A DNA stretch of 62,574 nt, filler included. It is 3 parts of 3 records of this genome, joined end to end, with 100 filler letters (N's around TTAATTAATTAA, not from the genome) between each part and the next. Parts side by side here need not be neighbours in the genome. Positions count along the whole stretch, not along the records: positions 1 to 22,973 come from SRR20825010_74; 2 more parts are not named here. The stretch is one strand, 5' to 3'. Positions 6,833-52,717 of the stretch are shown one piece after another. The translations under genes and the position numbers were made by a program. How positions within the stretch are numbered: the stretch's first letter is position 1; each line of letters starts with the position of its first letter. The notes under the pieces were generated by a model that saw only the letters and a list, made by a program, of their open reading frames with translations, was not told the origin of the DNA and ran no database searches.

Positions 6833-6857
6833 TAGGGTGAAAAAGAAATCAACTGTC
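6831..6857 (+). promoter_or_regulatory. Putative ECF sigma promoter for fecR-TBDR
   Basis: AATAGGGTG-N13-CTGTC between the sigma stop codon and the fecR start. Confidence 0.7.
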
Positions 6858-6875
6858 CTATAAATAAGAGCGATT

Positions 6876-7796: not shown

Positions 7797-10364
7797 ATGA
7801 GGTACTTTAAAATCCTATTGTCATTACTCTTTTTGGGCATTTCCATGACCTATGCCCAAGAAAATCTATTTTATGAATTTGAGAACACCTCACTCAAAGA
7901 AGTAATTCAGCAATTAGAAGCGGACACCCAACTCAGTTTTTCTTTCGCAGAGGATGTGGTGGACGAAAAAAAGATTACGGTTCAAGTGGACGGACTCACC
8001 TTGTTTGAACTCCTTGCCGTACTCGAAGCACAAACCGGACTTCATTTCGAGAAAATTGAGGGACAGCCCCAAGTCATCGTTACGCCAATTTCAAATTCAA
8101 ATCAAATCTGCATTTCTCTGCTAGACCAAGAAACCCGATTGCCCATTACGGAAAATCAGGTTGTGGTCGACTCAATCTTGGTGCTTGAAACCAATCAAAA
8201 AGGGTTGCTTCAATTTGAAAATACAGAACAATCCAGTTATTTGCTTCACGTTTCGGGTTATGGTTCTGTGAGTGTTCATTCTTCGGAGGATTGCGTCCCG
8301 ATTTATCTTTCTCCCGTCTACAAGCAACTCAAGGAAGTGGTGGTCACTTCCTACATCACCACAGGGATAGACCGAAATCAGGATGGCTCTATCACCCTCA
8401 CCCAAAAACCTTTGGGGCCCATTCCCGGGCAGACCACGCCAGATATTTTACAAAGCATTCAAATGATTCCTGGGGTTTCCAGTTTGGATGAATCAGCTTC
8501 GGAGATTCAAATCCACGGGGGAACTTCAGACCAGAATCTGGTGCTATTTGACCATATTCGGGTGTTCAATTCAGGGTATTTGTATGGGATGTTCTCAAGG
8601 TTCAATCCGTATGCCACCGAAAAGGCGATAATCTACAAAACCGGGACCAGTACTGTTTATGGAGACCGCGTTTCCGGGGTTATTGATATCACTACCGACG
8701 ATACCATCGCCCAAAAGGTTTCCGGAGGGATTGGGATTGATGGCTTGAGTGCGGATGGCTATTTAAAAATACCCTTGTCCCAAAAATCCTCACTGTCGCT
8801 TTTTGCGCGAAATGCCTATCTGGATGTATTTGAAGGACCCACCTATGAAGCCTATGAACGAAAAATTTTCAACAATACCGGCATCATAACCGACAGCCGC
8901 GGCAATCCATTGAATGTGAATACGGATGATGATTACACCTACGAGGACAGTGACAATGACTTTCGGTTCTATGACCTGAATGCCAAGTATGTGTATCAAC
9001 CTTCGCTGAAGGACAAGATTGCCATCAGTGCCCTCATGACCCGAAACCGCACCCAATTTTCCTTTATGAATGATGGAGAAACCAAAAAGGACTCGCTTAC
9101 CACTGGGAATGGTGGGGTGAGTGCCAACTGGACGCATCATACCTCCCCAAACCAAACGGAGGAAATCACTGCCTACTTTTCTTCATATGACTCTTATTAT
9201 AAAAACGAAGAACTCTTGGACAATGAATTGGAGGAGACCAATATTCGTGGTAATAGGATCAGCGATTTTGGCTTGGAACTGAAATCAGATAGAACTTTTA
9301 AGAATGATGACCGATTGAGCTTTGGATACCAACTCTCCAATACCAATTTGGAAATTGACCTGAGTGCCATATCCAACGTTGAACGGGAAAACAACATCAG
9401 TCTCCCCGTACACGAGAGTAATTTTAAAAACGTACTGTTTGGCGAATACACCATTACCAAAGCCAATTCGGGCATCTATAAATTGGGGATTAGGGCGGTG
9501 CATTATGGAAGTTTAGGAAATATCTATCTGGAACCTCGTTTGAATCTGGAACTTCCCATTTCCAAATCTTCGCGGATTCGGGCTGGATTGGAAAGACGGA
9601 ACCAACCCATTTCACAGCTGATTGAATTCAATCAAACTGAACTTCGATTGGACAACAACATTTGGCGGCTTTCGGACGATGTCAATTTTCCGCTTTTACA
9701 AAGTAACCAGATTTCAGCAGGGCTTCTTTTTGATAAAAAGGGATGGACCTTGGATGCGGAAGTTTTCCACAAGCGGCTCACTGGGCTAACCACCTATAGC
9801 CAAGGGTTCAATTTACCCCGGCCAGAACTCAGTGAAGGCAAAAGTCGCATTTTAGGAATGGACTTGCTCGTTAAAAAACGTATCCAAAACTATCGATTTT
9901 GGATGGGCTATTCTTTCAATGATGTCAATTTTACCTTTGATGCGGTTCAAGAAGACAGTTTTTCCGGAAACAATGACATCACCCATAGTTTTCGAATATC
10001 CAACAGCATACAATTCAATGGTTTACAATTATCGTTGGGCTGGCAATACCGCACTGGTCTTCCTGTTACCCTCATTGAAAATTATGATGAAGAGACCCAG
10101 CAAGTCAATTTTGGCCCCTTAAATGCGGGTCGTTTGCCCGATTTTCATCGCTTGGATGCCTCGGTGGTCTATCAGTTTGGATTGGGAGAACGTAACTCCA
10201 GAATGCAATTGGGCTTTTCAGTACTCAACATTTACAATCGTATTGTTCCGCTTTCCATCATTCACCGCACCTCTCAACAAAATGGTGAACTTATTTTGGA
10301 ACAGGTGATCCACAGGCGTTCGTTGGGGCTTACCCCAAACTTTACGTTAAGGGTCTTTTTTTAG
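7797..10364 (+). CDS. TonB-dependent receptor with N-terminal signalling extension
   Basis: Signal peptide, STN-like SLKEVIQQLE..SFSF, plug (DILQSIQMIPGV, GGTSDQNLVLFD), RLPDFHRLD, terminal Phe. Confidence 0.88.
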   Translation: MRYFKILLSLLFLGISMTYAQENLFYEFENTSLKEVIQQLEADTQLSFSFAEDVVDEKKITVQVDGLTLFELLAVLEAQTGLHFEKIEGQPQVIVTPISNSNQICISLLDQETRLPITENQVVVDSILVLETNQKGLLQFENTEQSSYLLHVSGYGSVSVHSSEDCVPIYLSPVYKQLKEVVVTSYITTGIDRNQDGSITLTQKPLGPIPGQTTPDILQSIQMIPGVSSLDESASEIQIHGGTSDQNLVLFDHIRVFNSGYLYGMFSRFNPYATEKAIIYKTGTSTVYGDRVSGVIDITTDDTIAQKVSGGIGIDGLSADGYLKIPLSQKSSLSLFARNAYLDVFEGPTYEAYERKIFNNTGIITDSRGNPLNVNTDDDYTYEDSDNDFRFYDLNAKYVYQPSLKDKIAISALMTRNRTQFSFMNDGETKKDSLTTGNGGVSANWTHHTSPNQTEEITAYFSSYDSYYKNEELLDNELEETNIRGNRISDFGLELKSDRTFKNDDRLSFGYQLSNTNLEIDLSAISNVERENNISLPVHESNFKNVLFGEYTITKANSGIYKLGIRAVHYGSLGNIYLEPRLNLELPISKSSRIRAGLERRNQPISQLIEFNQTELRLDNNIWRLSDDVNFPLLQSNQISAGLLFDKKGWTLDAEVFHKRLTGLTTYSQGFNLPRPELSEGKSRILGMDLLVKKRIQNYRFWMGYSFNDVNFTFDAVQEDSFSGNNDITHSFRISNSIQFNGLQLSLGWQYRTGLPVTLIENYDEETQQVNFGPLNAGRLPDFHRLDASVVYQFGLGERNSRMQLGFSVLNIYNRIVPLSIIHRTSQQNGELILEQVIHRRSLGLTPNFTLRVFF

Positions 10365-10365
10365 G

Positions 10366-10640
10366 CTAATTGCATCTTGTCCCAATGTGCAACTCCCTAT
10401 GAACATTGAGGATTTCCCCATACACGGTATCGAGGTATGCGTTCAAATCCTCCATGATTCTACTGGTCGGGAACGCTTTTCCACGAATTTTGTCCCAATT
10501 GCACACCGGAATGTCCCGCTTGATACTGATTTCTGCACGCTCCTTTTTGACCGTTATGCGAACATATATATCGTATATGCTCGGGTCATTGCGCTTTTTC
10601 CTGACGAAGAAATTGATTCCTAAAGTACTGTCTGTCCCAT
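10366..10640 (-). pseudogene. Truncated Bacteroidota tyrosine integrase (N-terminal arm-binding domain only)
   Basis: STLGINFF...IYVRITVKKERAEISIKR...WD...LNAYLD. The nearest ATG (10640) is out of frame with this sequence; SAM-like and catalytic domains are absent. Confidence 0.75.
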
Positions 10641-10735
10641 GTGGTAATAATTTTAATTGAACAATTGTCATTGGTCAGACTGCCCTTTGACCTCAATCGT
10701 TCATACCTAAAATTACAACAATCAGTGTACCAGTG

Positions 10736-10947
10736 TGCACACCTTATTGCACACCAAAAATATGGTTTCAAATGATATCAGATGGAATCATAAAAAATGA
10801 GAAGCAGTGATAATCATACAATTAACAGTGCTTTGTTTCTGCCTATAAGGCGGTTCGTCGGAATGACTGAACCCCCCATATGGTCGTAAGTTATTGTAAA
10901 CCAGAAACAAGCACTGAAAATTCAGAACCTGCACACCTTATTGCACA
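10736..10947. mobile_element. att-like site: 18-bp direct repeats and an inverted repeat around a tRNA-3'-end-like core
   Basis: TGCACACCTTATTGCACA at 10736-10753 and 10930-10947; IR CAGTGCTTTGTTTCT (10826-10840) / AGAAACAAGCACTG (10903-10916); core CAGTCATTCCGAC on the minus strand at 10857-10869. Confidence 0.6.
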
Positions 10948-11155
10948 TTTATCATGAAAATGAGAATAAGAACATATCCAATAATTATTAAAATTACTGA
11001 ATTCATTTCAAATGAAGGCAAATCCCTTGGAAAATTCGAAAATACCCCAATGCTACATTCTGAAGAAACCACAAGGTCAAACTGAATCTAAGACTAGAAA
11101 TATTCAAATCGATTACTTTTCACCAAACTATTATCCTAACTCTTTTCATGAAGTA

Positions 11156-12295
11156 TTAACCGCCTAAAACACTGCTGAGCTTGAACATCGGAAGGTACAT
11201 GGACACCAAGATCACCCCTACAAATACACCAATAACGACAATGATAAGCGGCTCCATAATAGTAGAAAGCATCTTGGAATTACGCTGCACCTCCATTACA
11301 TATTGTTGGTTCAATTTTTTGAAAATATATTCGGTCTGATTGGTTTCCTCCGCTACCTTGACCAATGATACCATCTTATGGTCAAAGACCTTGTTTCCCT
11401 TTAAACTTTCATGAAGGCTCGTACCTTTCAAGATCCTTTTCTCCATGGTATCCAAAGCGTCTTGTAAGGGATAGAACCCCATCATCTTTTTTGCCATTTG
11501 GACACTGTTCAACATGGGCACTTTGGAAGTGGTCAATAAGGCCACCGCTTGGGTAAACTGTGCCATATAGATCAATCGCAAGAAGTTGCCAAAATATGGG
11601 GCCCTCAGAATAAGATAATCCCGCTTTCTTCGGATGGATTCTTTTCGCATCAAGGGTTTTCTTAACAGAATCAAAACAAGCATCATTAAAAGTACGGCAA
11701 GACCATACTGTTCGATCAGATTGGATATACCAATGATATATTGGGTAATCGTCGGCAGTTCCACATTGTTCTGCCTAAATATGTCCTCGAACATGGGAAC
11801 TACCATCCGAAGCATAAAAATAACTACAAGTATAGCGGTACATAATATGATCAAGGGATAGGTAAGGGCACTTATAAGGTTCCTGCGCTGCTCGTTCTTT
11901 TGGGCAAAGAAGGTCGCCAATTCCTGTAGTATGGTTCCCAGATTGCCGCTTTCTTCCCCTATTTCAACGGAATAGTATTCATATTCCGTAAACTCTCGGC
12001 GTCTTTTCAGCACTTCGGAAAAACTTGATCCACTGTCCAATTCCTTGACCATGTCACCATAAAACAACTGTAGGTTATCCTTTTTTTGGTTCCCTGACAA
12101 TAGTTCAAGGGCTTCTCTCAATTGAAGTCCTGCCTTTAAAAGTATCGCCAGTTCACTATAAAAACCCTCCTTTTTCTTGGAGTTGAAAAAGGAACCGAAA
12201 AGGGTGATCTCCTTTTTTAACCACTTATCCAATCCCTCCTTTTGAGTGGGAACCGTATTCGCTTTTTCCAAGGTCTGGTCCAATTTGAATCCCAT
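11156..12295 (-). CDS. gspF: Type II secretion / type IV pilus platform protein GspF/PilC
   Basis: ELAILLKAG, GEESGNL, ALTYP, MYLPMF; two T2SSF repeats. Confidence 0.92.
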   Translation of the reverse strand: MGFKLDQTLEKANTVPTQKEGLDKWLKKEITLFGSFFNSKKKEGFYSELAILLKAGLQLREALELLSGNQKKDNLQLFYGDMVKELDSGSSFSEVLKRRREFTEYEYYSVEIGEESGNLGTILQELATFFAQKNEQRRNLISALTYPLIILCTAILVVIFMLRMVVPMFEDIFRQNNVELPTITQYIIGISNLIEQYGLAVLLMMLVLILLRKPLMRKESIRRKRDYLILRAPYFGNFLRLIYMAQFTQAVALLTTSKVPMLNSVQMAKKMMGFYPLQDALDTMEKRILKGTSLHESLKGNKVFDHKMVSLVKVAEETNQTEYIFKKLNQQYVMEVQRNSKMLSTIMEPLIIVVIGVFVGVILVSMYLPMFKLSSVLGG

Positions 12296-12298
12296 AGT

Positions 12299-12766
12299 TT
12301 ATCGATTGATATAGCTTGTTGCCGCGTTACGTTTGTATATGAATATCCGAGTCCTGTCCTTCTCTCCAATGAACAGGTCCATAGCATCGATTTCTCCTTC
12401 ATTGACACTACCCGCACCGAAGTAAGGGCTTAATTCATTTATTTTTATATGAAAGGTGTCAAGTTCCCTGACCACCATATCCTCTTGGAACCGGTAATTG
12501 ATCTCGCTGATTCCATTGACCAGCAACAGATTTCTGTCCTGGGTTTTGTACCATATCCTATCATGGGCATTAAAATCCATCCATAGGCGCTGACGCAATA
12601 AGCGTAGTTCGGTGTTCCTTTCATAATTGGATAAAATCCCGTTCATCTGGACTTGTACCAAACGTAAAACACTAAAGGCCATTCCAACGACCAAAGCGGT
12701 GATCAACAAGACCACCAACATTTCGTGCAGGGTAAATGCCTGTATTTTTTTCAGTGCTCTACTCAT
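12299..12766 (-). CDS. Prepilin-type minor pseudopilin (GspJ-like)
   Basis: KKIQA|FTLHEMLVVLLI class III signal peptide. Confidence 0.8.
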   Translation of the reverse strand: MSRALKKIQAFTLHEMLVVLLITALVVGMAFSVLRLVQVQMNGILSNYERNTELRLLRQRLWMDFNAHDRIWYKTQDRNLLLVNGISEINYRFQEDMVVRELDTFHIKINELSPYFGAGSVNEGEIDAMDLFIGEKDRTRIFIYKRNAATSYINR

Positions 12767-13091
12767 GGTTCAATGAAAATATGATCTCCTTATCGTTTCT
12801 TGTATTCATTGCTGAAAAAATCACCTGCTCCCTATCGTGCCAAGTTTGCTGCTCTACCTTGATTTCCCAGTGTTCTTGTTCATCATAATGCGGTAGTGAC
12901 AATTTTCCATGGGCATATCGATATTGCAAAAACAAGAGCTCTTGCCTGATCGGACCGTCATTTTGTTCAATTGAGGTCACGAACAAGGTATTCAAGGTCA
13001 TACTGGCCATCATAAAGACCACCACTATTAATACGGTGGCCACGAGGGTTTCCATGAGTGTTGATCCCTTTATTTTTTTTAATACAGCCAT
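12759..13091 (-). CDS. Prepilin-type minor pseudopilin (GspI-like)
   Basis: KKIKG|STLMETLVATVLI class III signal peptide with E5. Confidence 0.75.
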   Translation of the reverse strand: MAVLKKIKGSTLMETLVATVLIVVVFMMASMTLNTLFVTSIEQNDGPIRQELLFLQYRYAHGKLSLPHYDEQEHWEIKVEQQTWHDREQVIFSAMNTRNDKEIIFSLNHE

Positions 13092-14350
13092 TTTGCTATT
13101 CCATTGGTAGTCTCACAGTCATACACTAGGCCACAATATTCATCTGGCAACAATTCCGAATTGATGGTTCCATTGAACAAATGGTTCAAATAGGTGTTCC
13201 CATTTTCAAAAGAGATAAAGGATCCTGTGGTCACGCTTCCATATATGCTCCCTTTAAGCTCGAGCGCTTGATCGCAATACACTTCACCGGTGATTGTTGC
13301 CTCTCTGTCTATCCCGATGTACTTGGGCAGTCCCTTTGTTTTCCCTTTGCTACTAAAGATAATGGCACCAGCGATGCTTGATCCACTCTCTATTGCTATC
13401 ACCGGATCTCTAAGGATATTGACCGCGTGGTCTGAGGTATTTGCTTCCTGCACGGCCAATAAGGTTGGATATTCCAGTTCACATCCTTTGCCCACCACTA
13501 TCCGCTCGCTGGCAATAGCTTGAAAAGACCCTCTTGTCCCCTGCTCTATTTCAATCTGGGGCGCCACTAGAATCACGTCCCTTAATTGGCTGGTTGCCCT
13601 TACATGGATCTTGTCCATGGCCCAAACCACAACGTTGCCGATCAAGGTCACTTTGTCAAGATCCAGATAATCACTTCCTTGAACCACTATGGCCTCTCCC
13701 TTAAAACTGTTTTTGATCAGCAGACCCTGTTTTAAAGTGACGGTGTTGCCTTTCGGCCTGTACGTGGAACTTGTCATCAATTTCAACTGTTGGTCCACTT
13801 GACTGCAAAGCTCAGGCAATTGAGCATTACTTTGAAATGTATTTCCATAGACCAATTGGGGCCTTGGATATCCATGGCCCTGAATGTTGCCTATCTTGAT
13901 GCCCCGTTCGGGCAAATAGGCATTGCCGGATATTTTAGCATCGCCTACGATGACAATCGGACGGTTGTCATCCCTTAAATATAATGCAGGTAGGTCAGGG
14001 TTTTTATAGCCTACGAAAGCTGATTTCTCAAACTGGAGCTTTCCCTTTTTGGAAACCGAGTTCCTTTTCTCCAGAAGCCCCCAATATTCCTTGGTAACCT
14101 TGGATTTTATTCCCAAATCGGGGTTCCCTGCCACATCCACGCCGTTTCCTTCCTGAACGGTCATTGAAAACGATTCGAACATTGCATTGTCCGAAACTCT
14201 AACAAGGTCCACCATTATGTACGTTTGTTTATCGAACAGCGAATGGCTTTGGTTGATCAGGATAAAGGCGAAGAGCAACAGGACAATGATGGTCCCTATA
14301 AAAAGTACGAACTGGAGCGCACCGGCCTTTATTTTTGAAAAAATGATCAT
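13079..14350 (-). CDS. Large pilin-like protein (GspK/PilX-like)
   Basis: KIKAGALQFVLFI, hydrophobic N-terminus lacking E5; overlaps the neighbouring pseudopilin gene. Confidence 0.55.
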   Translation of the reverse strand: MIIFSKIKAGALQFVLFIGTIIVLLLFAFILINQSHSLFDKQTYIMVDLVRVSDNAMFESFSMTVQEGNGVDVAGNPDLGIKSKVTKEYWGLLEKRNSVSKKGKLQFEKSAFVGYKNPDLPALYLRDDNRPIVIVGDAKISGNAYLPERGIKIGNIQGHGYPRPQLVYGNTFQSNAQLPELCSQVDQQLKLMTSSTYRPKGNTVTLKQGLLIKNSFKGEAIVVQGSDYLDLDKVTLIGNVVVWAMDKIHVRATSQLRDVILVAPQIEIEQGTRGSFQAIASERIVVGKGCELEYPTLLAVQEANTSDHAVNILRDPVIAIESGSSIAGAIIFSSKGKTKGLPKYIGIDREATITGEVYCDQALELKGSIYGSVTTGSFISFENGNTYLNHLFNGTINSELLPDEYCGLVYDCETTNGIAKWLY

Positions 14351-14802
14351 TGTAATACGATGGTTTCCGACCTACCATCATAGTGGACCGTAATATGCTG
14401 GCCATTTCCTTTCAATAGCTTTACCCCATTGATTTCCTCATTTTTGGACATGATGTGTTGCTGTCCATCGATCGATACAAAGTACATGGTGTTTCCAGAG
14501 CCCGTCTGTGATACCAGACCCGAGTATCCAATATTCCTTTTGGAAATGGGTTTCTTTTGAACCGCTCTTTTGATGGGTTTCTTTTTTGATATGGGTAGCG
14601 TTCCCAAAAAGGGGTCACGGTAATCGGCCATCAACTCAAAGGTATCTCTCTTTTCAGTGCTCTTTGGGATCAGGGTGGGTTGCGTTGCTACCATGGGCAT
14701 TTCAGGATCTTTGGATATGGCATGGATCACCTTAAAGCCAATAATGCCCCAGATCAAGAGTACCAAGGCCAACAGCAGATATGTCCTTAGGTTTTTGCTC
14801 AA
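14347..14802 (-). CDS. Bitopic T2SS-associated protein (GspC/PilP-like)
   Basis: N-terminal TM, YRDPFLG motif, C-terminal beta domain; operon context. Confidence 0.55.
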   Translation of the reverse strand: MSKNLRTYLLLALVLLIWGIIGFKVIHAISKDPEMPMVATQPTLIPKSTEKRDTFELMADYRDPFLGTLPISKKKPIKRAVQKKPISKRNIGYSGLVSQTGSGNTMYFVSIDGQQHIMSKNEEINGVKLLKGNGQHITVHYDGRSETIVLQ

Positions 14803-15497
14803 TCGTTGATGGTAAAATTAAAAGTGCTGCTATCCCCGCTTTCATTGCCGGCGGTATCAATGGCCCTTACCAACCAATAGTAAGTGCCTGCGCTCAAGGT
14901 TGTCGTATAGCTCTTATTGGCCCCAACGGCCTTGGTGGTCAATTCCTGTAAGTTCTCATCGGAATATATGAATATGCTGTCTCGCTCAGCTGTACCCGGA
15001 ACATCCTCCCGGCTCCATGTAAACCCGATTTCCGTATCGGAAGTATCACTTCCATTGTTAGGAGATATCAATTGGGGCGTATTGGGAGGGGTCAGATCAA
15101 GATCTTCATCTCCATTGACCTGAAAACCATTACTGGAATATATGGTTTCAAAACCACTGTTAAAGGCTTTGACCCGCCATTCATAATTCCCGTTGAAAAG
15201 GTTTTGACTAATTTGGTTCGGTAAATATCCCAGAGTATCCATTTCAATGACACTGTCCAATAGGATCTGGGCGGTATTTTCAAAATTGGGAGATGCCACT
15301 TGAATGCTATAGCCCGAAGCCTCTTCCACTCCCTCCCAGTTAAGGTTGACCGAGTTATCGTCCAGGACAGACCCATCGGAGGGGGCCAACAACTTCACGG
15401 ATTTCCCGGAAATATCGGGTACCTCCAAAATATCCTCACAGGCCACAAGACCGAACGAAAAAATCATGGTCACTGCAATAAAAGTTCTTGTTTTCAT
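14799..15497 (-). CDS. Lipoprotein with two fibronectin-III/Ig-like repeats
   Basis: Lipobox LVAC; LLAPSDG..LNW..YEWRVKA and LISPNNG..FTW..YYWLVRA. Confidence 0.7.
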   Translation of the reverse strand: MKTRTFIAVTMIFSFGLVACEDILEVPDISGKSVKLLAPSDGSVLDDNSVNLNWEGVEEASGYSIQVASPNFENTAQILLDSVIEMDTLGYLPNQISQNLFNGNYEWRVKAFNSGFETIYSSNGFQVNGDEDLDLTPPNTPQLISPNNGSDTSDTEIGFTWSREDVPGTAERDSIFIYSDENLQELTTKAVGANKSYTTTLSAGTYYWLVRAIDTAGNESGDSSTFNFTIND

Positions 15498-16219
15498 AAC
15501 TTCAAATAATCCGGGGTTCTGTTCAACTTCTCCGGGGTCGCTTTGGTACTACCCGGGCAGGTGATGCCATCCATTAAGATCTGGGCAATATTTATCCTTC
15601 CTCTATTATCCATCTTCCAGCAGAAATTGGCCCGCTCAAAATCAAAGATTTCCAAGCTTGATTGCTTTATGGGTTTTCCATCTTGAGTACCCCCTGCTAT
15701 TTGGAGGAACAACGCCCCATCGGAACCGGTCTTCAATAATAGTTTCTCGGCCATATCCAATTTTTGGGACATTGTCTGATTCACTACAATCGACATGGAG
15801 GACAAAAGGACCAGTTCCACATCTTCCTGGAGGTATTTTTTTAGGTTCAAATTCTTATCTGAATTGAGCTGCTCCACTAGACTGACAACGTCGCTAATCT
15901 CCAACTGATAATAGGCAAGTTTTGCCATCTGGGTGCTGTCCATGGTCTTGGCCAAGGGTTGCATGCCCAAATGTTCCCGATATTTTTCGTATCTCGATTT
16001 CATTCTACCCGATAAGGGAACGGGCTCTATGGTGACACTAATAGGTCGGTCCAATTCCGGTTCCCCCATCTTCTGGAAGCCTTTTTCAAATAATGAAGAT
16101 TGATGTTTGCCAATGGATCCCAGTACAGGGACTTGTGATTGTACTTTCTGCATTTGGCGCATAGGCCCACAGGCCTGTAGCATAAATGCCAGAAGGAGTA
16201 TGGTCAGTGTAGGTCTCAT
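15494..16219 (-). CDS. Hypothetical lipoprotein
   Basis: Lipobox LQAC; 241-aa ORF translationally coupled to the next gene. Confidence 0.65.
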   Translation of the reverse strand: MRPTLTILLLAFMLQACGPMRQMQKVQSQVPVLGSIGKHQSSLFEKGFQKMGEPELDRPISVTIEPVPLSGRMKSRYEKYREHLGMQPLAKTMDSTQMAKLAYYQLEISDVVSLVEQLNSDKNLNLKKYLQEDVELVLLSSMSIVVNQTMSQKLDMAEKLLLKTGSDGALFLQIAGGTQDGKPIKQSSLEIFDFERANFCWKMDNRGRINIAQILMDGITCPGSTKATPEKLNRTPDYLKL

Positions 16220-16290
16220 GAATAAGATTCTGGTAAGGTTTTAACGCACTTTTCCCTATAATGTTGTACGAAAAGGCTTAAGTTATATTT

Positions 16291-19200
16291 TCATCTCCGT
16301 AATGAAAAATGACCGGCATAGGTCTTTCCATTGTCGTAGACATATTTGAACCAATAGTCCGTTGAGGGCATTCGTCTTCCCAAAATGGTACCGTCCCAAC
16401 CTTGACCTTGCGGAGTCAACTGTCCAAGTAGTTTTCCGTACCTATCGTACAAAAACAGTTGGGCATCCGGGTACAGTTCCCCGCCGATGATGTTCCAATA
16501 TTCATTGATACCATCGCCGTTAGGGCTAAAGAATTTTTGATAGCCGATGGCAATTAATTCTTTACTTATGGTCCGGCATCCTAACAGATCCCGAACGAAT
16601 ACGGTATACTTCCCGGGAAATACCTCAAACTGGTTTGAACTTTGATAGCTCCGTCCATCAATTGAATATTCAAAATCCCCTGTCCCAACGGCATCCACGG
16701 TAAGGGTAACCCTATCAGACAGGCCGTCCGTGGTGACCTCAAAACTCTCGGGAGCCCCTGATGACAATACTTCAAAACCAACGGTGTTGGAACAGCTCAG
16801 GCCATTTTTGGTTTCAATTACCGTTAGGGTGTATTTCCCTAAATCGGTGACATCAATGGTTTGTCCATTGCCAATCAAACTTCCATTTTCGTCTTCCCAC
16901 CGATAACTTTCAAAGATTCCTGCATCCAAAACAAGTTCAGGGCTATCCGGACAGATAACGTATACTTCCTCCAGACCGGGGTCGGGCAAAGGATTGATGG
17001 TCAATTCAAAACCAATGATGTCATAACATGAAACCAATTCACGATGTTGGATCCTTGCATAAATCCTTTCGCTCATTGCTGTGTTCAAATAATTCTCTTT
17101 GACCAGCGAACGCTCCCCATTTAAAGCGTCCACTTCACTGGAATGATAACTTACTTCATAAGACAGGGCATCCTGTCCATTGAGCACTTCCGTATCTTTT
17201 TGGGAGATATCGATAGTATTGACCCCCGTTTCATCCATAGCACAGACAACCATATTCATTGGGCCATATGCCGTTGGTACATCAAATACTTCCAAATCAA
17301 AACTCCCCGTTGTGTAGCAGGTAGTATTTTGGGTGTTGTTCAATCGAAAATAGATTGTTTGGGGATTTTCCGTATTTTGATAGTTTCCGGAAATCGGGTT
17401 TTGCTGGGATCCCGCATCGGCTTCGGATTCATAAAAAGCAATGGAGGCACCACTGGTTTTGTTCAAAATTTCAGTTGCCTTTTCAGTAAGATCAAATATA
17501 TAATGCCCATCATTGTCCGAATCACAGACCTGCCAATCTGATACCACGGGTACTACCGGCACCTCGTAACTGTTCAATTGGAACGAACCCGTATCGTAAC
17601 AGGAAGCATCGTTGGCATTGGTGACCCTAACGTAAACTGTCTCTTGAAAGCTATTGCTGGAATATGAAACAGGCAAGGGGTCCGTATTGCTATCGGCATC
17701 CACTTGGGAACCATGGTAACTTATGATCACACTACTTGCACTTTGTCCTCCCAAAATTTCATCTTCCGTTAGCGATAGGTCGAACTGGGCAGCGCCATCA
17801 TTGTCCTGATCGCAAACCTCCATATCAGAGGCCTGATGGGCCACCACTTGATCAATGACCCCCAAGGTAAAACTCCCCGTTTCAAAACATTCGGGATACG
17901 CCGTATTCACTATACGATAAAAAACAGTTTCGTCAAGAACCGAAACGCTATGGGCCGTATTCAAAGGGTTGGTCCCATTGTCCGCGTCCAACTGTGAACC
18001 ATAGTAGGACACACCAAAAATATTGTCATCCTGCCCATTAAGAACTTCACTGTCCTTTGTGGTCAGGTCAAAAAGATAGGCTCCGTCCCCGTCGTCATCG
18101 CAGACCACCCAATCCGTCGGGACGAACAGTTGAGGGGCTTGTTTTACAATGATATCAATACGGGTCGTATCAAAACACAGGATATTGTTGCCATTGGATA
18201 CACGTGCATAAACGGCATTCGTTCCCAAATCAAAAACCATCTGCTGTGGTAAGGGATTGATTTGGGCATCGGCATCTGCTTGGCTGTCGAAATAAGAGAC
18301 TTGAAATATACTGGGATCTTGAGGACCCAGAATAAGGGCATCCAAACTTTTTAAATCATAATCCATGGTTTCCGATGGGATACATGCTTCCACATCGGCC
18401 ACGGGATTTGCCACAGGAACCTCGGAAATTGTCAATGCTACGGATTCGGTACTGGAACGGGCGGCCTCGGTAACCGTTAAGGTCACTTGGTATGTACCCG
18501 CAGCAGCATAGGTATGGGACGGGTCTGCATCGGTTGACGTGGCCCCATCCCCAAAGTCCCAAAGAACCGTTGCCGAGGGGTTTTGTACAGCCCCGGAAAA
18601 ATTGGTCTGTTCTCCCAAACAAGTATTCTCAAAAGAAATATTTCCGGTCAGTGTACTTATATTGGAAATAAATGTCGGGAGTCCCAAAAATCCCATTCTA
18701 CCGTTTAGGTAAAAATCATTATATCTATAATCACAGGCAGTTCCCAAACCATTGGGATTATGGATGACATCCAAATACTCCTTACGTACCTTAACCCCAT
18801 ATATTTTTCCATCCGGTGCCAGTTGAAGGGAGCCAAATGATTCATTAGCCGACATCAACACTACCCTTGAATTCGCTATATCAGTTGCAGAACCCGCCTT
18901 AAGATTTAATTGGGATACACCTCTCATATATGCGATATAAATTAAATTTCCATCGGGCGAAAATTCAATTCCAAAAGGGTTAACCCCGGGAATGGTAATA
19001 GGATTTGATATTTTTCCTGTAATCTCATCAAAATCAAAAATTTCCAATTCACTTACATTGGCAGTCGCAAGTCTAGTTCCATCCGGCGATATCTTTATTT
19101 GCCCAGTAGTCCTGTAATCCGGTCCGTTTCCAATTCCGGCCGAGCTTATCACAGGTGTATTGCTTATGCCCGCTGCCGTTACTTCAAAGGCTACAAACTC

Positions 19201-19758
19201 ATTACTGTTGTAGTTTTGTGAAATCACCCAATAATCATTGGAACCACTTTTTTTGTATGCCACTACCTTTTCTGGAGTTCTACTGATAAGTTGGATATTT
19301 TTTGTGGAAATATCTCCCATACCTCCATCCAATGACATATCCACTATTGAATATTGTAAACCATTCGTGGGCACTATTCTATTAAAAACCCTAATAACAT
19401 CTACGGTAAAAATATAATACAACGTACTACTGCCTGGAAAAGGCACAATTACAGCTGAATGGGTACTGGAAGAATCCCCAAATAGCCCTGTGCCGTTGGG
19501 CATAAGTTGATGGTTTTTGTTATATACATTGACTCCATCAGTGTAAAAAAGGAGATTTCCTCCATTGTCCGAAATAGTGGCACAACCTTCATTGGTATAT
19601 AACTGGCCATCGGTAACGGCCATGGGAGCCCCACTGTTAAAATCAATTCCTGCATTATACCCAAAATACCAATGGTTGGCCCTATTCTGGGCTTGGGTCC
19701 CTACAGACAGTAACAACAGAAAAAGAACGGAAACAAATTTGGCAAGGCGTAGGTTCAA
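16291..19758 (-). CDS. T9SS type B sorting-domain protein with beta-propeller, PKD and Asp/Cys-rich repeats
   Basis: NHWYFG N-terminus, PKD (WDFGDG..PSHTY), about five CDxDxDG..FDL-type repeats, C-terminal FFSPNGDGINEYW...DRYGK...GWDG...DYWF...GHFSLRR. Confidence 0.9.
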   Translation of the reverse strand: MNLRLAKFVSVLFLLLLSVGTQAQNRANHWYFGYNAGIDFNSGAPMAVTDGQLYTNEGCATISDNGGNLLFYTDGVNVYNKNHQLMPNGTGLFGDSSSTHSAVIVPFPGSSTLYYIFTVDVIRVFNRIVPTNGLQYSIVDMSLDGGMGDISTKNIQLISRTPEKVVAYKKSGSNDYWVISQNYNSNEFVAFEVTAAGISNTPVISSAGIGNGPDYRTTGQIKISPDGTRLATANVSELEIFDFDEITGKISNPITIPGVNPFGIEFSPDGNLIYIAYMRGVSQLNLKAGSATDIANSRVVLMSANESFGSLQLAPDGKIYGVKVRKEYLDVIHNPNGLGTACDYRYNDFYLNGRMGFLGLPTFISNISTLTGNISFENTCLGEQTNFSGAVQNPSATVLWDFGDGATSTDADPSHTYAAAGTYQVTLTVTEAARSSTESVALTISEVPVANPVADVEACIPSETMDYDLKSLDALILGPQDPSIFQVSYFDSQADADAQINPLPQQMVFDLGTNAVYARVSNGNNILCFDTTRIDIIVKQAPQLFVPTDWVVCDDDGDGAYLFDLTTKDSEVLNGQDDNIFGVSYYGSQLDADNGTNPLNTAHSVSVLDETVFYRIVNTAYPECFETGSFTLGVIDQVVAHQASDMEVCDQDNDGAAQFDLSLTEDEILGGQSASSVIISYHGSQVDADSNTDPLPVSYSSNSFQETVYVRVTNANDASCYDTGSFQLNSYEVPVVPVVSDWQVCDSDNDGHYIFDLTEKATEILNKTSGASIAFYESEADAGSQQNPISGNYQNTENPQTIYFRLNNTQNTTCYTTGSFDLEVFDVPTAYGPMNMVVCAMDETGVNTIDISQKDTEVLNGQDALSYEVSYHSSEVDALNGERSLVKENYLNTAMSERIYARIQHRELVSCYDIIGFELTINPLPDPGLEEVYVICPDSPELVLDAGIFESYRWEDENGSLIGNGQTIDVTDLGKYTLTVIETKNGLSCSNTVGFEVLSSGAPESFEVTTDGLSDRVTLTVDAVGTGDFEYSIDGRSYQSSNQFEVFPGKYTVFVRDLLGCRTISKELIAIGYQKFFSPNGDGINEYWNIIGGELYPDAQLFLYDRYGKLLGQLTPQGQGWDGTILGRRMPSTDYWFKYVYDNGKTYAGHFSLRR

Positions 19759-19961
19759 GTAAAATAGCTAATGGTTATAACAGCAAAATAAGATTTTTCC
19801 TTCAAATATGAAATCTTATTCTATGAACTACATCAAATCTAAGTTTATATGAAAGTGAATAAAAGTCGTCTAACCAATAGTCCGAGAAAAGGGAGGGTTA
19901 CATTGAATATTGTGATTAGTTTAAACAACTATTTTACTAAATTCCCGTTTAAGACAATTAT

Positions 19962-20597
19962 ATGAATATCCAAAAATCACTACTATATACATTTTTTTTC
20001 TTCTTATTTGTTCAGGTAACAGCCATTTGGGTTTCCCTAAATTCTATTACGGATATACAATTTCTCATAGATGATTACAATTATTTTGTATCTGCTACAA
20101 TAGAGTTAATAGGTATAATCATATTCTTTTTTGTAATAAAAGAGCAAAGAAAGTTAATCCCAAAAAGGACATCAATCATATATTACATACTAGCAGTAAT
20201 TTGTGCTGCTTTATACGCCTTCTTTCAAAAATGGCTGAACTATGTATATGATATAATTGCAGGTACGGATTTTGCTAGCAATACCACTTATGATTTTAAT
20301 TTTGAGCCAAACAAATTCACATTTAATTTATTTGCGATTGTAGTTTTATTACCTATTGCGGAAGAGTTGTTTTTTAGAGGCTATATACAAAACGGCTTAC
20401 AAAAAAATTATAAGCCATTAGTTTCTATTGGTACTTCTTCCTTATTGTTTACTCTATTGCATCTACCTAACATCCATCATACTTACCTAGTATTTTTTGG
20501 TGGTTTGATTTCTGCCATACTTTATTTTAAATCTAAATCTATAACTCCATCTATAATCTTTCATATCATCTGGAACTTGCTAGTTAATTTTAGTTAA
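19962..20597 (+). CDS. CPBP (CAAX protease/Abi) family intramembrane metalloprotease
   Basis: EELFFRG, FTLLH, HIIWN motifs; multiple TM segments; AT-rich. Confidence 0.88.
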   Translation: MNIQKSLLYTFFFFLFVQVTAIWVSLNSITDIQFLIDDYNYFVSATIELIGIIIFFFVIKEQRKLIPKRTSIIYYILAVICAALYAFFQKWLNYVYDIIAGTDFASNTTYDFNFEPNKFTFNLFAIVVLLPIAEELFFRGYIQNGLQKNYKPLVSIGTSSLLFTLLHLPNIHHTYLVFFGGLISAILYFKSKSITPSIIFHIIWNLLVNFS

Positions 20598-20610
20598 GAT
20601 TAAACGAACT

Positions 20611-21093
20611 TCATTGTAACCCCAGAGCGGCTTTAGAGTTATAAGCTAACAATATGTTTTTGTTATCAGTATATGATTTCAAAAGTGAATTAAGCTTGAT
20701 TTCATTGAACTTTCCTAAATAATAGAACAACGAAGTTTTGGCATAATCATCATTGACTAATAAAAAATTATCATATGCAACATCCACCATTCTAGTTTTG
20801 TCTTTATTTAGTCTATAAAGACACCAAGCTATTATGATTTTGTCAAAAGGCTCTTTAACTTCGTCTAATCTTTTTTCAATAATTCTTATTGATTTTTCAG
20901 ATTTCATATAAGCTAACGTTTCAATTACTAATAAATCATAACGAGATTTAAGGTCTTCAATCAGCATCTTTTCAATTAACATCTTCTCATCATTTTTGAG
21001 ACTGTCAACTAAATCCTCATTGTTAAAATCCCTTCTATATTTATAATAATCATTTGGTGGGATTATTTTTTTGTATAACCTTTTTATATTCAT
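20611..21093 (-). CDS. Putative immunity protein for the Rhs toxin (alpha-helical, HEAT-like)
   Basis: ATG 1 nt after the Rhs stop; very AT-rich; ETLAYMKSEKSIRII and LLAYNSKAALG helical-repeat-like segments. Confidence 0.65.
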   Translation of the reverse strand: MNIKRLYKKIIPPNDYYKYRRDFNNEDLVDSLKNDEKMLIEKMLIEDLKSRYDLLVIETLAYMKSEKSIRIIEKRLDEVKEPFDKIIIAWCLYRLNKDKTRMVDVAYDNFLLVNDDYAKTSLFYYLGKFNEIKLNSLLKSYTDNKNILLAYNSKAALGLQ

Positions 21094-21094
21094 C

Positions 21095-22972
21095 TTAATC
21101 AACCCAATTATACTTGATTTTCACATTATTCGCTTCAAGAATTGGTCTTTCTATACGATTCCAAGTTGATGAAGCATTTTTAGCTGCTGACCTCGTAATA
21201 TGTACATTTGCTGTACTTCCTGGTTTATATGACCTTGCTAAAGCACCTGATAATCTGTCCCAAAATGGTCCCGATTGACTTCTATTCATTCCTGCTGTTA
21301 GCTTTATCATATTTTTCCCTGCTCTAGTTTGACCTAAAACCATAAAACCAGCTCTCCTTGCTGCCGCTTCTGTTCCTCGACCTGACCAAAATGACATTTT
21401 ACCTAAATTCCTTAAAGTCAAAGCTCTTACACCTAATTTGGCAGGCATAAAATCTAAAAAGGATAAAGGTGTTATCGCTCCACTTTCTTTTGGTACTTGA
21501 CCCCCATAATAATCATAAGCTTGAGAAGCCCATCCAACCATTGCCAATAAAACATCATCAGTAAAATTATAGGTACCTAATATTTCAATAGATGCTTGAC
21601 CTTGACCAATACTTCTAATTGTAGTTCTAAAGGCTTCAAAATATTTATCTTCTGTAGTCCAACCCTTGCCTAGGCCACCAACTCCTCCTGAATGATAAAT
21701 TTGATTTTCGTAAGTGTAACTCTCCATTCCGTCAAGAGCATTAATGTGAGGCACCATTTCGGTTCTTCTCTGTCCTTCTTGCAGGCAATCATCACAAAAT
21801 CCACCTTCGCCGTTAGAGTTCCAAGTACTACTACCATTTTCAGGTGTTGCATCCCAAGCTTCCTGTATAGAACTTACTGTTGTTGTGCCTGATGGGTCTG
21901 CATAATATACAGGATTATTATCGAATGCTGTGTAAGTAGATTGATTAAAATGAGTAACAGGGTCAATCGCAGTAAACCTCCCAATCGCTGCATCATACTG
22001 CCTAAAACCCATTTCATATAACCCTGTAGTCTCATCAAGTTCCACGCCACCAAACTTCCACTTCTGCGCCACATCGTTTCCAAGAGATGACATGGGAACG
22101 TCGTTGTACCCTTTGTGCTTAAGGCCGAAGGGGTAGTAGTTGTTCTCCTCCACTATTTCCAGACCGCCATTTCCGTCATCCACATAGCTCAACCGTATGT
22201 TGCCCAAATGGTCCTTGTATTGGTAGACATAATCATAACCTCCTTGTCCGTCCGGGGTCACATAGCCCTCCGGTTGGCCAAAGAACTGCAACGTTCCTCC
22301 CTGGTAGATATAGTTGCCCGCATAATCTGTCACAGAACTTCCCGTGGACACCGTTTTCTGTATTTTGGTGCCCGCGGCATCATAAACATACGAAATATCC
22401 CCGGAACCCATTTCAATCTTTGTGGGGAGGTTCAGGTGGTTGTACTCGATGCCGTCCGTACTGGCCGTCCCGATTCCTTTATTAAGGTCCCTGGTCAAAT
22501 TGCCGTTGGCATCGTACCAATAGTCCTGGGTATCCCCGGTACCGTCCTTGAACCCGTAGCCGTCACTGCCGTCGTCCCTTACCTTGTAGAGCCTGTTGCT
22601 GGCCCCACCGTTGAAATAGCCATAGTCCAGATCGTCCATGCTACCGGCAAAGGAGGTCACCTGTCCGGTGCCGTCAACAGCCGTATGGCCCTTGCGCTCC
22701 AAACTGCCGATGTTCCCATTTTTATCATATAATATCCCCACTAGGTTATAATGTCCCGTGTTATCGGTAGCCGAGGTTATACGGTTCAGGGCATCATAGC
22801 CGTACGAATACCTTTCACTGACGGTATTGCCGGTTGTGTTCACACTCGCCGTGCTCCACTGTACCTGTGAGATGTTCCCGTTGTATAGGGGTGCCGGGTT
22901 CTCCCCTGTTCCAAAATCGGTAGGGTTGTTGTAGCTTATCCCAAAGGCAAAGAGGTCTATGCGTTTTCTCCA
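21095..22972 (-). CDS. RHS repeat-associated core protein with C-terminal toxin (5'-partial)
   Basis: Frame open to the contig end (DLFAFGISYN..LYNGNISQ); YDALNRI, YDANGN, KDHLGNIR, NNYYPFGL, NNPVYYADPSG, then a divergent tip. Confidence 0.92.
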   Translation of the reverse strand, partial: WRKRIDLFAFGISYNNPTDFGTGENPAPLYNGNISQVQWSTASVNTTGNTVSERYSYGYDALNRITSATDNTGHYNLVGILYDKNGNIGSLERKGHTAVDGTGQVTSFAGSMDDLDYGYFNGGASNRLYKVRDDGSDGYGFKDGTGDTQDYWYDANGNLTRDLNKGIGTASTDGIEYNHLNLPTKIEMGSGDISYVYDAAGTKIQKTVSTGSSVTDYAGNYIYQGGTLQFFGQPEGYVTPDGQGGYDYVYQYKDHLGNIRLSYVDDGNGGLEIVEENNYYPFGLKHKGYNDVPMSSLGNDVAQKWKFGGVELDETTGLYEMGFRQYDAAIGRFTAIDPVTHFNQSTYTAFDNNPVYYADPSGTTTVSSIQEAWDATPENGSSTWNSNGEGGFCDDCLQEGQRRTEMVPHINALDGMESYTYENQIYHSGGVGGLGKGWTTEDKYFEAFRTTIRSIGQGQASIEILGTYNFTDDVLLAMVGWASQAYDYYGGQVPKESGAITPLSFLDFMPAKLGVRALTLRNLGKMSFWSGRGTEAAARRAGFMVLGQTRAGKNMIKLTAGMNRSQSGPFWDRLSGALARSYKPGSTANVHITRSAAKNASSTWNRIERPILEANNVKIKYNWVD

Positions 22973-22973
22973 G

Positions 22974-23073
22974 NNNNNNNNNNNNNNNNNNNNNNNNNNN
23001 NNNNNNNNNNNNNNNNNTTAATTAATTAANNNNNNNNNNNNNNNNNNNNNNNNNNNNNNNNNNNNNNNNNNNN
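22974..23073. other. Artificial contig linker
   Basis: N44-TTAATTAATTAA-N44 (stops in all six frames); abrupt change in GC and gene type. Confidence 0.98.
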
Positions 23074-52617: not shown

Positions 52618-52717
52618 NNNNNNNNNNNNNNNNNNNNNNNNNNNNNNNNNNNNNNNNNNNNTTAATTAATTAANNNNNNNNNNNNNNNNNNNNNNNNNNN
52701 NNNNNNNNNNNNNNNNN
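52618..52717. other. Artificial contig linker
   Basis: N44-TTAATTAATTAA-N44. Confidence 0.98.

Follow-up and report, generated by a model that had tools for sequence, protein, structure and literature searches.

A toxin gene of the Rhs type and a seven-gene pseudopilin-GspF operon lie side by side in a Flagellimonas chromosome, and the same oriented pairing recurs in related Flavobacteriaceae. We analysed these genes in a 62,574-nt stretch of DNA (the window), in whose first contig (contig 1, positions 1-22974; Table 1) they all lie, and in 79 related loci. The results revealed Rhs genes upstream of the operon and on its strand in 44 of 57 related loci, never on the opposite strand there, and downstream of gspF in 3 of 65 (Fisher p = 7e-18, uncorrected for relatedness), which bears out the recurrence that a preliminary description of this DNA had expected. 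The layout is best explained as three modules standing side by side, namely an Rhs toxin cassette, an optional type-B protein of a type IX secretion system (T9SS), and a seven-gene operon with its own promoter-like element. We further suggest, with a probability of about 45%, that the modules are functionally coupled, the Rhs protein being the cargo that the pseudopilus machine exports. Each module is of a known kind, and the new element is the link between the Rhs array and the pseudopilin/GspF operon; a full-text search, with subscription journals and supplements outside its scope, found no literature linking Rhs toxins to a Bacteroidota pseudopilin/GspF operon resembling a type II secretion system (T2SS), and no mention of "DUF6443".

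Recurrence of the Rhs linkage

The loci were collected as relatives of K423, the large pseudopilin of the operon, with 10-kb flanks, and the best 80 of 130 matches gave 79 distinct loci (L numbers below). Rhs genes were detected with four Rhs queries at E <= 1e-6, and adjacency was counted at loci with at least 7.5 kb of visible flank, by which 22 loci were dropped upstream and 14 downstream. The upstream count of 44 in 57 is a lower bound, given a weak RHS_repeat match in L023 and a T9SS type-B gene (T9B) that fills much of the visible flank in four other negatives. At all 50 loci with upstream Rhs matches, these were on the operon's strand; Rhs-type genes stand downstream in L066. When the open reading frames (ORFs) of the 79 loci were clustered all against all, Rhs came first after the seven core families (46 loci, with 50 of 51 Rhs ORFs upstream), followed by T9B (31 loci) and an IS200-like transposase (15 loci), and no downstream family occurred in more than nine loci.

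Rhs adjacency extended over at least 11 named genera: Flagellimonas (15 of 19 loci), Allomuricauda (6/7), Maribacter (5/6), Ulvibacterium (3/3), Spongiimicrobium (2/3), Cellulophaga (2/2), Croceitalea (2/2), and Arenibacter, Aurantibacter, Pricia and Croceivirga (1/1 each), counts to which six short-flanked loci positive for Rhs contribute. In a GspF tree with 75 rows, from which five short loci were omitted and in which 11 rows went unscored, the absences of Rhs, 13 in number, needed 13 changes and thus fell at single scattered tips. The simplest history is a single old juxtaposition kept through the radiation of the clade, with sporadic recent disruptions, of which the integrase/Fic/relaxase element upstream of the operon in L001 is an example. 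Within the kept linkage the Rhs gene itself has been turned over, because its N-terminal architectures differ (DUF6443, leucine-rich repeats (LRR) with immunoglobulin-like (Ig) domains, or Ig_7), and the adjacency is independent of the T9SS gene, because 19 Rhs-linked loci lack T9B.

Such a history would also be expected of neighbours by descent, that is, one ancestral adjacency in which Rhs was renewed in place by recombination beside a machine of general function, while the Rhs proteins leave the cell otherwise, through vesicles, lysis or another exporter. We regard this explanation as a real possibility, since one clade with adjacency throughout and absences only at its tips points to a single origin. 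Mere descent accounts less readily for the retention of Rhs in 46 loci against at most nine for any downstream family over the same divergence, for the constant strand of the upstream Rhs genes in all 50 loci with matches, and for a linkage that outlasts both replacement of the Rhs N-terminus and loss of T9B.

The interval between the Rhs array and the operon also carries insertion sequence (IS) transposases, of the IS200-like type in 15 loci (e.g. L027:72-632) and of the IS1 family in six (e.g. L049:5368-6033), and small outer-membrane beta-barrel genes recur in the upstream flanks of eight loci.

The seven-gene operon and its machine

The operon is made up of Lp241, Fn232, C151, K423, pp110, pp155 and gspF, which overlap by 4, 4, 4, 13 and 8 nt or lie 3 nt apart, in keeping with the tight coupling described earlier. 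The block was found in the same order in 69-79 of the 79 loci, K423 being present in all of them by selection, as the loci were chosen as its relatives. Its products would be two lipoproteins, one facing the periplasm and an Fn3 one that is probably surface-exposed, along with a GspC/PilP-like protein, a pseudopilin trimer and GspF. The window GspF shares 97-98% identity with its counterparts in F. abyssi and F. chongwuensis and scored 248.8 bits with TIGR02120, under the equivalog cut-off of 424, the HofC and PilC models also staying under their cut-offs. For C151, the term GspC-like could be kept in a weak sense: three weak signals agree (TIGR01713 at 5.8e-4, below cut-off with 19.5 bits versus 101.6; Pfam T2SSC at 0.083; and the GspC HR domain 2lnv as best PDB sequence match, E 0.31), and there is no family match.

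These genes are the "tip and platform" half of a known Bacteroidota T2SS-like machine derived from type IVa pili (T4aP). The remaining half encodes GspG, a prepilin peptidase, GspE, the GspD secretin, and PilMN-like and PilO-like proteins. This secretin/ATPase block adjoins the operon in four of the 79 loci: divergently upstream of Lp241 in L066, with a GspG-like pilin, a GxGD-type peptidase-like small membrane protein, GspE, GspD, and PilMN- and PilO-like proteins, and convergently, just after gspF, in L001 (F. chongwuensis), L076 and L074. Both halves are contiguous in three long loci (L001, L066 and L076). GspE orthologs of 70-85% identity were present in at least 10 named genomes without an adjacent gspE, several on the same large contig; because they exist elsewhere in the same genomes, the machine is usually split into two loci. 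In the window, tblastn with the secretin-half proteins of a relative found no GspE, GspD or GspG relative anywhere, and a family scan of the 21 larger contig 1 ORFs gave no match to these three proteins. The preliminary description had placed gspD, gspE and gspG outside the contig, and the Rhs N-terminus beyond its end.

In the "T2SS" of Cytophaga hutchinsonii and F. johnsoniae, three minor pseudopilins stand upstream of F, followed by G, the prepilin peptidase, E, D and PilN/M/O-like genes, and the same gene order is given for Fjoh_0611-0614; the C. hutchinsonii system is needed for cellulose utilisation, its mutants having secretion and cellulose-use defects (PMC5553014). Denise et al. placed the Bacteroidetes system with T4aP rather than T2SS, as a possibly new secretion system that may have evolved independently (PMC6668835). 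The machinery had been called uncharacterised, which is not supported, since the system is known from earlier work on C. hutchinsonii and F. johnsoniae (PMC5553014); that the role of the Bacteroidota T2SS-like genes is poorly defined holds for this known kind of system.

In its AlphaFold (AF2) model (predicted local distance difference test, pLDDT, 86.8; predicted template modelling score, pTM, 0.84), K423 has a helix at residues 9-60, a four-stranded sheet at 71-115 and a beta-helix of about 300 residues at ~120-420. The leader, KIKAG↓ALQFV, has no Glu at +5. No Pfam or NCBIfam match was obtained for K423, even at E 0.1, and no GspK structure was among its fold matches listed. The designation GspK-like therefore suits the role and position of a large tip pseudopilin without Glu5, and does not extend to the GspK family, from which the missing match and the beta-helix set K423 apart. 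Of the two small pseudopilins, whose N_methyl matches are near or below cut-off, pp110 has M1, T11-T15 and other N-terminal residues invariant in 16 orthologs. A three-chain prediction of K423-pp110-pp155 scored 0.84, the best of three controls 0.01; in the calibration, 51 of 78 solved complexes attained that mark, as did 2 of 108 mismatched pairs, a set that a three-chain job does not resemble. The runs agreed in at least 79% of contacts, with a partner pLDDT of at least 84, and the model pairs the C-terminal strand of pp155 (145-154) with residues 417-423 of K423 and has pp110 bound to K423. The prediction supports a minor-pseudopilin trimer of these three proteins, while its score may owe something to resemblance to pseudopilin complexes already solved.

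The best PDB fold match of K423 was the competence pilin ComZ (6qvi), a weak one with E 4e-4 and TMq 0.21. A pilus-like filament that does not secrete could therefore be considered, serving DNA uptake or adhesion with a ComZ-like tip, the Rhs link being either incidental or part of a "kill, then take up DNA" strategy. Such a filament would agree with weak ComGE and ComGF matches of the small pilins, with the T4aP branching of the Bacteroidetes system (PMC6668835), and with a ComEA-like HHH_3 gene (L076:6994-7815) that stands divergently beside the operon at a locus that also has the contiguous secretin half. We consider it highly improbable, since the ComZ match (TM 0.21) is based on the common layout of a beta-helix on a pilin, neither a PilT-type retraction ATPase nor ComEC was found in any flank scanned, and the C. 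hutchinsonii mutants are defective in secretion and cellulose use (PMC5553014). The ComEA-like gene adjoins the operon in one of 79 loci, for which reason a ComEA link to competence was rejected.

The first two operon genes encode lipoproteins. Lp241 has no acidic residues after the lipid Cys. A profile search of 1.84 billion representatives returned 363 clusters at E <= 1e-3 (289 at <= 1e-10), a compact family of ~240-aa proteins (judged on the best 150 of the 363) in which a pair of Cys residues is invariant and a C-terminal YLKL conserved. Lp241 had no Pfam or NCBIfam match at E 0.1, and a PDB profile search gave only a chance match to mukF (E 1.9). With the AF2 model (pLDDT 83), gasdermins of mammalian, bacterial, fungal and Trichoplax origin headed the Foldseek matches in the PDB, and cholesterol-dependent cytolysins came next; the gasdermin matches are weak (E 2e-3 to 3e-2, TM 0.2-0.33, none at E <= 1e-3), so that a gasdermin-like fold, as modelled, is a lead and not a result. 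TPR-CHAT (caspase-like) proteins occur near the operon in three loci (L060:5084-8317, L051:197-3046 and L054:13316-16570); the one in L060 lies directly upstream of the Lp241 ortholog, and at least this one has a signal-peptide-like N-terminus, which is worth noting only in view of that lead. A gasdermin-protease pairing was rejected, as TPR-CHAT is found in only three loci, at inconsistent positions. Fn232 gave a Pfam Big_13 match of 4.7e-5, below cut-off, and many of its orthologs have a single Ig/Fn3-like domain rather than two. Right after the lipobox cysteine, the orthologs carry a nearly invariant CEDILEVPDIS, an acidic stretch that we take to resemble the Bacteroidota surface-lipoprotein export signal.

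Upstream of Lp241, alignment of 12 intergenic regions revealed the invariant blocks of a promoter-like element, followed by GAATCTTA-N3-ATG ahead of the first operon gene; a sigma-70 promoter/terminator scan was uninformative for a Bacteroidota genome. Strict ACAACA-N15-CGTT had 46 plus-strand matches in 1.42 Mb of loci and nine on the minus strand; 36 of the 46 were just upstream of Lp241 and three more where the ORF start had been mis-called, which places the element in that position in 39 of 69 loci. In its place, the other subclade has a TTTCTGTATTTTAG-like box of the Bacteroidetes type (TAnnTTTG-like). ACAACA-N15-CGTT resembles a promoter for an extracytoplasmic function (ECF) sigma factor. 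A regulon shared by Rhs, T9B and the operon was rejected, the motif being absent upstream of the Rhs and T9B genes in view.

The Rhs cassette, its relatives and the T9SS type-B gene

The Rhs gene of the window is a fragment. Its shell was identified by the RHS core model (TIGR03696; 59.6 bits versus a cut-off of 32.5) and the YD repeat model (TIGR01643; 20 bits versus 15.8), and a motif of the PxxxxDPxG type, read in translation as NPVYYADPSG, marks the core/toxin junction. Its nearest full-length relatives are DUF6443-Rhs proteins, the closest among the matches listed being 76% identical and from F. marinaquae. The C-terminal domain beyond the junction had no Pfam or NCBIfam match, even at E 0.1, and no relative in the 79 loci; its language-model neighbours are C-termini of polymorphic toxins (best score 0.90), which serve as leads only. 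The adjoining 163-aa ORF likewise had no Pfam or NCBIfam match at E 0.1, and its atlas features were closest to small HEAT-repeat proteins of Bacteroidota (0.97, 212 shared features). From position, overlap and HEAT-like features it is a candidate immunity protein; the earlier assignment was thus right about where the gene lies, and the immunity role is positional.

The GC content drops from 0.47-0.57 in the Rhs shell to 0.34-0.39 in the C-terminal domain, 0.26-0.29 in the 163-aa ORF and ~0.29 in the CPBP gene, and all three are without counterparts in the related loci, the CPBP gene being strain-specific. Because this low-GC stretch (0.26-0.39) lies between the shell and a T9SS gene with a GC content of 0.43, and lacks counterparts in relatives, we read it as an exchangeable Rhs tip cassette, of which such a composition is the usual signature. 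What had been called an island is therefore to be narrowed to ~19.8-21.9 kb (GC 0.26-0.39); the rest, at 0.43-0.57 on either side, is not island-like.

The preliminary description had left the choice between a Sec signal and a PAAR domain to the full-length Rhs proteins; as the window Rhs lacks its N-terminus, syntenic ORFs and the closest relatives were used instead. Long Rhs ORFs from four loci carry DUF6443 (L017), LRR+Ig (L020, L040) or Ig_7+DUF6443 (L065), and no PAAR or VgrG domain was found in them. Eight syntenic Rhs-type ORFs that measure at least 900 aa and have a called start were judged by eye: a signal-peptide-like N-terminus was seen in six, five at the start and one at an internal Met, and none in the ORFs of L041 and L072. 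All 120 listed full-length relatives of the window Rhs contain PF20041 (DUF6443) and many PF19081 (Ig_7), and their precomputed Pfam lists include no PAAR or VgrG family. No VgrG, PAAR or Hcp family was detected among the 21 larger contig 1 ORFs scanned, in line with what the bare sequence had suggested, and no vgrG, hcp or tss gene of a type VI secretion system (T6SS) among the annotated upstream and downstream ORFs of the loci. Delivery by T6SS was consequently rejected, with no PAAR, VgrG or Hcp in contig 1, the annotated flanks or the 120 listed relatives.

Ahead of some DUF6443-Rhs genes stands a gene for a signal-peptide protein of 1150-1270 aa with an RHS repeat at its end (L010:10741-17058, L066:15742-21281, L023:1006-4812, L020:3-1742 and L017:2-948), with a small lipocalin-like lipoprotein between the two in L010. 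The pairs may form a multi-gene Rhs module. A Tc-toxin (TcB/TcC) reading of the 1150-1270-aa proteins was rejected, because they match neither SpvB nor TcdB and have only the terminal RHS repeat.

Between the cassette and the operon lies T9B, in which TIGR04131 scored 106.2 bits versus a cut-off of 35 (7.3e-31), along with Pfam PKD and CHU_C. A full-length ortholog stands immediately upstream of the operon in 26 of 57 loci. One might therefore propose that the Rhs protein surfaces with T9B, or attached to it, and that the pseudopilus operon is unrelated. Ig_7, an Ig-like domain ("CHU_C-associated") that typifies T9SS cargo, does occur in many Rhs relatives, and T9SS substrates are enriched beside TANFOR toxin genes (PMC7073777). 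We nevertheless hold T9SS-linked display to be very unlikely: T9B is optional, being absent from 19 of the 44 Rhs-linked loci and partial or non-adjacent in three more; the Rhs C-terminus is a presumed toxin domain rather than a sorting domain, and no family of T9SS C-terminal domains was matched in the four long Rhs ORFs scanned. T9SS type-B cargo often has an adjacent PorP/SprF-like partner gene; none stands beside T9B, whose neighbours, CPBP and Lp241, match no such family. As for the accessory role proposed earlier, the type-B sorting domain is present, and the absence of T9B from those 19 loci makes it an option of the locus.

The window itself joins three unrelated contigs (GC 0.43, 0.60 and 0.34) by N-linkers with a TTAATTAATTAA tag at 23018 and 52662, and features cannot be read across the N runs at 22975-23073 and ~52620-52716. 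Contig 1 proteins share 90-98% identity with their counterparts in Flagellimonas chongwuensis HICW and F. abyssi W52, which confirms the flavobacterial label, and the gene inventory given earlier was found in place, every gene on the minus strand except the CAAX gene. After gspF, the integrase remnant marks a rearranged flank where close relatives carry other genes, and no tRNA attachment site was found beside it; intact integrases lie 3' of gspF in L002. At the nucleotide level, the homology to L001 and L010 does not extend past the stop codon of gspF (11160-11163; the region concerned is window 10366-11160, L001 13188 and L010 10208), and at its opposite end it stops inside Lp241 (L001) or inside T9B (L010). 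Three genomes with ~90% or higher protein identity thus have three different flanks after gspF: the integrase remnant in the window, the secretin/ATPase half in L001 and Rhs-type genes in L010. Beyond the integrase remnant, window 6311-10364 encodes an ECF sigma factor and a FecR-like anti-sigma protein, together with an outer-membrane protein of 855 aa that has STN, FecR_C and Plug domains; ECF sigma genes recur near the operon, as a downstream cluster in eight loci and as an ECF/FecR pair directly after gspF in L058.

Table 1. Features of contig 1, with positions counted along the window
Feature	Position	Strand	Remarks
Tyrosine integrase remnant	10366..10671	-	Arm DNA-binding domain only; Pfam Arm-DNA-bind_5 2.2e-8
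gspF, GspF/PilC-family inner-membrane platform protein	11156..12295	-	last operon gene; Pfam T2SSF 4.6e-44, two stretches
pp155, minor pseudopilin	12299..12766	-	KIQA↓FTLHE, Glu at +5; N_methyl 3e-4
pp110, small minor pseudopilin	12759..13091	-	KIKG↓STLME, Glu at +5; N_methyl 0.007
K423, large minor pseudopilin, 423 aa	13079..14350	-	pilin-type helix and sheet, then long beta-helix
C151, bitopic membrane protein, 151 aa	14347..14802	-	weakly GspC/PilP-like (HR domain); present in 72/79 loci
Fn232, lipoprotein	14799..15497	-	two Ig/Fn3-like domains; lipobox read by eye; present in 71/79 loci
Lp241, lipoprotein	15494..16219	-	first operon gene; lipobox read by eye; present in 69/79 loci
Promoter-like element ACAACA-N15-CGTT (AAC-N16-CGT spacing)	16243..16267	-	~25 nt upstream of Lp241 start
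T9B, T9SS type-B cargo protein, 1155 aa	16291..19758	-	signal peptide, PKD domain, repeated ~90-aa modules
CPBP/CAAX-type intramembrane protease gene	19962..20597	+	Pfam Rce1-like 9e-23
Candidate immunity gene, 163 aa	20611..21102	-	8-nt overlap with Rhs stop
Rhs gene fragment	21095-22972	-	open to contig end, no internal stop
Private C-terminal domain of Rhs, ~270 aa, presumed toxin	21098..21907	-	no named family
Rhs shell, YD repeats and RHS-associated core	21908..22972	-	TIGR03696, TIGR01643; ends in NPVYYADPSG

A possible Rhs delivery route and its place among known systems

If the Rhs protein is the cargo of the pseudopilus machine, it would cross the inner membrane via Sec and fold its cage in the periplasm. 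A short pseudopilus with a K423-pp110-pp155 tip would then push it, or hand it, through the secretin, after which it would be released or displayed at the cell surface, and its C-terminal toxin would act on neighbouring bacteria that lack the immunity protein. The coupling is favoured by an oriented linkage kept while other neighbours were lost, and by the fact that these Rhs toxins must cross the outer membrane and carry no other system's signal. In classical T2SS, the tip pseudopilins and GspC are the parts that contact the cargo. By analogy, it also speaks for coupling that in the split systems Rhs stays with the half that holds the tip pseudopilins and the GspC-like protein.

Several observations weigh against such a coupling. 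All loci come from one family, the Flavobacteriaceae, and the locus counts are not independent events, because the pattern fits a single retained ancestral juxtaposition. No upstream Rhs was found in 13 of 57 loci, among them L001, L066 and L076, in which the machine is contiguous. DUF6443-Rhs genes are multi-copy per genome, some lying on other contigs of the same genomes, and also occur in Tenacibaculum, Aquimarina and Winogradskyella, genera that the 79 loci do not include. The operon has its own conserved promoter-like element, with no copy seen ahead of the Rhs and T9B genes in view. In the window, Rhs and the operon stand apart, with an opposite-strand gene, a break in GC content and intergenic gaps between them, contig 1, of 23 kb, lacks the secretin/ATPase half, and homology to the two closest genomes ends exactly at the gspF stop, where the integrase remnant abuts. 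Furthermore, the interval abounds in IS elements and integrases and is thus a plastic region, and the folded Rhs cage may be too wide for the secretin channel. Finally, the C. hutchinsonii system serves cellulose use (PMC5553014), so that the machine need not be specific to Rhs.

Much of this is what neighbourhood by descent would predict as well: the operon's own promoter-like element, the IS200 and IS1 transposases, integrases and orphan cassettes in the interval, the Rhs copies at other loci and in other genera, the recombination hot spot (three genomes ~90% or more identical, with three flanks and sharp breakpoints), and the housekeeping role in C. hutchinsonii (PMC5553014). Descent leaves a Sec-signal Rhs protein still in need of an outer-membrane route. 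As regards the proposal that a dedicated pseudopilus system may export or display Rhs, the recurrent linkage, the Sec-like N-termini and the lack of PAAR/VgrG agree with export or display, whereas "dedicated" is not supported, in view of the cellulose role (PMC5553014), the promoter-like element and the optional T9B.

A bolder reading, which we consider unlikely, is that the T4aP-derived "T2SS" of these Flavobacteriaceae is a toxin-delivery device besides a general exporter, in which a short pseudopilus with a beta-helical spike would carry Sec-exported Rhs cages, or expel them, by way of the secretin, in functional analogy to the T6SS tip of VgrG/PAAR-Rhs, and would be aided by Lp241, as a possible gasdermin-like pore former, and by surface-exposed Fn232, on exit or at the target. 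If true, this would be a third, independent route of Rhs delivery in two-membrane bacteria. Bacteroidota have many large polymorphic toxins with Sec signals and no known route across the outer membrane, and the oriented linkage of Rhs to tip and platform genes makes the toxin route and the role of the machine addressable by one experiment. Should the linkage prove functional, T2SS-like filaments would join T6SS and Gram-positive Sec-only export as carriers of Rhs, and marine Flavobacteriaceae would have a previously unrecognised interbacterial weapon; should it not, the locus would still stand as a clear case of an Rhs hot spot that became fixed next to a core operon.

Among known systems, the closest is the Bacteroidetes T2SS-like machine (C. 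hutchinsonii chu_3191-3201; F. johnsoniae Fjoh_0611-0622), which has the same parts list and whose two halves are likewise contiguous in L001, L066 and L076, whereas here, as in most of the 79 loci, it is divided between two loci. In the present operon, two lipoprotein genes and a GspC-like gene precede the pseudopilins and an Rhs array stands beside it, which may set it apart from the Cytophaga and Flavobacterium clusters. Classical T2SS (Gsp/Pul) shares the GspF-family platform, minor pseudopilins with a predicted trimer, of which the large one lacks Glu5 as GspK does, and a candidate cargo gene beside the machine genes; in classical systems, substrate genes beside the machine include pulA and sslE, the latter next to gsp-beta. 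It differs in that the window GspF scores 248.8 against 424, no GspK, H, I or J family is matched, K423 has a beta-helix in place of the GspK alpha-domain, and the Bacteroidetes system is placed with T4aP (PMC6668835).

The PAAR/VgrG-linked Rhs effectors of T6SS have the same YD-repeat shell, DPxG-type motif, variable C-terminal toxin and downstream immunity gene, and in both cases the toxin gene lies beside genes for the tip of a piston-like machine; here, however, no PAAR, VgrG or Hcp was found in the contig, the annotated flanks or the 120 listed relatives, and the N-termini are Sec-signal-like with DUF6443, Ig or LRR domains. WapA-type Rhs proteins of Gram-positive bacteria consist of a signal peptide, adhesin-like N-terminal domains, an Rhs shell and a toxin, with a cognate immunity gene. 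The syntenic Rhs proteins appear to share that layout, but the present host has two membranes and needs a second translocation step, a gap that the neighbouring machine could fill. ComZ-PilA2, the competence pilus tip of Thermus thermophilus (6qvi), likewise combines a minor pilin bearing a large beta-solenoid with small-pilin partners at the filament tip; the match to it is weak (E 4e-4, TMq 0.21) and without sequence similarity, and the context here, with a secretin and a GspC-like protein, is of the secretion type and not of the competence type.

As to toxin export, Zhang et al. assigned signal-peptide RHS toxins generically to "T2SS" export in their Table 2 (PMC3482391), and a role of T2SS in bacterial competition has been reported in Serratia (PMC13729183). 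The TANFOR toxins offer the nearest parallel in reasoning: these polymorphic toxins, also from Bacteroidota, bear Sec signals and have been assigned no secretion system, and their route was proposed from enriched neighbours, Jana et al. having inferred their T9SS link from gene neighbourhoods (PMC7073777). The present locus differs from them in its delivery domain, which is Rhs/DUF6443, and in its recurrent neighbour, which is the pseudopilus operon, with T9SS cargo as an optional companion.

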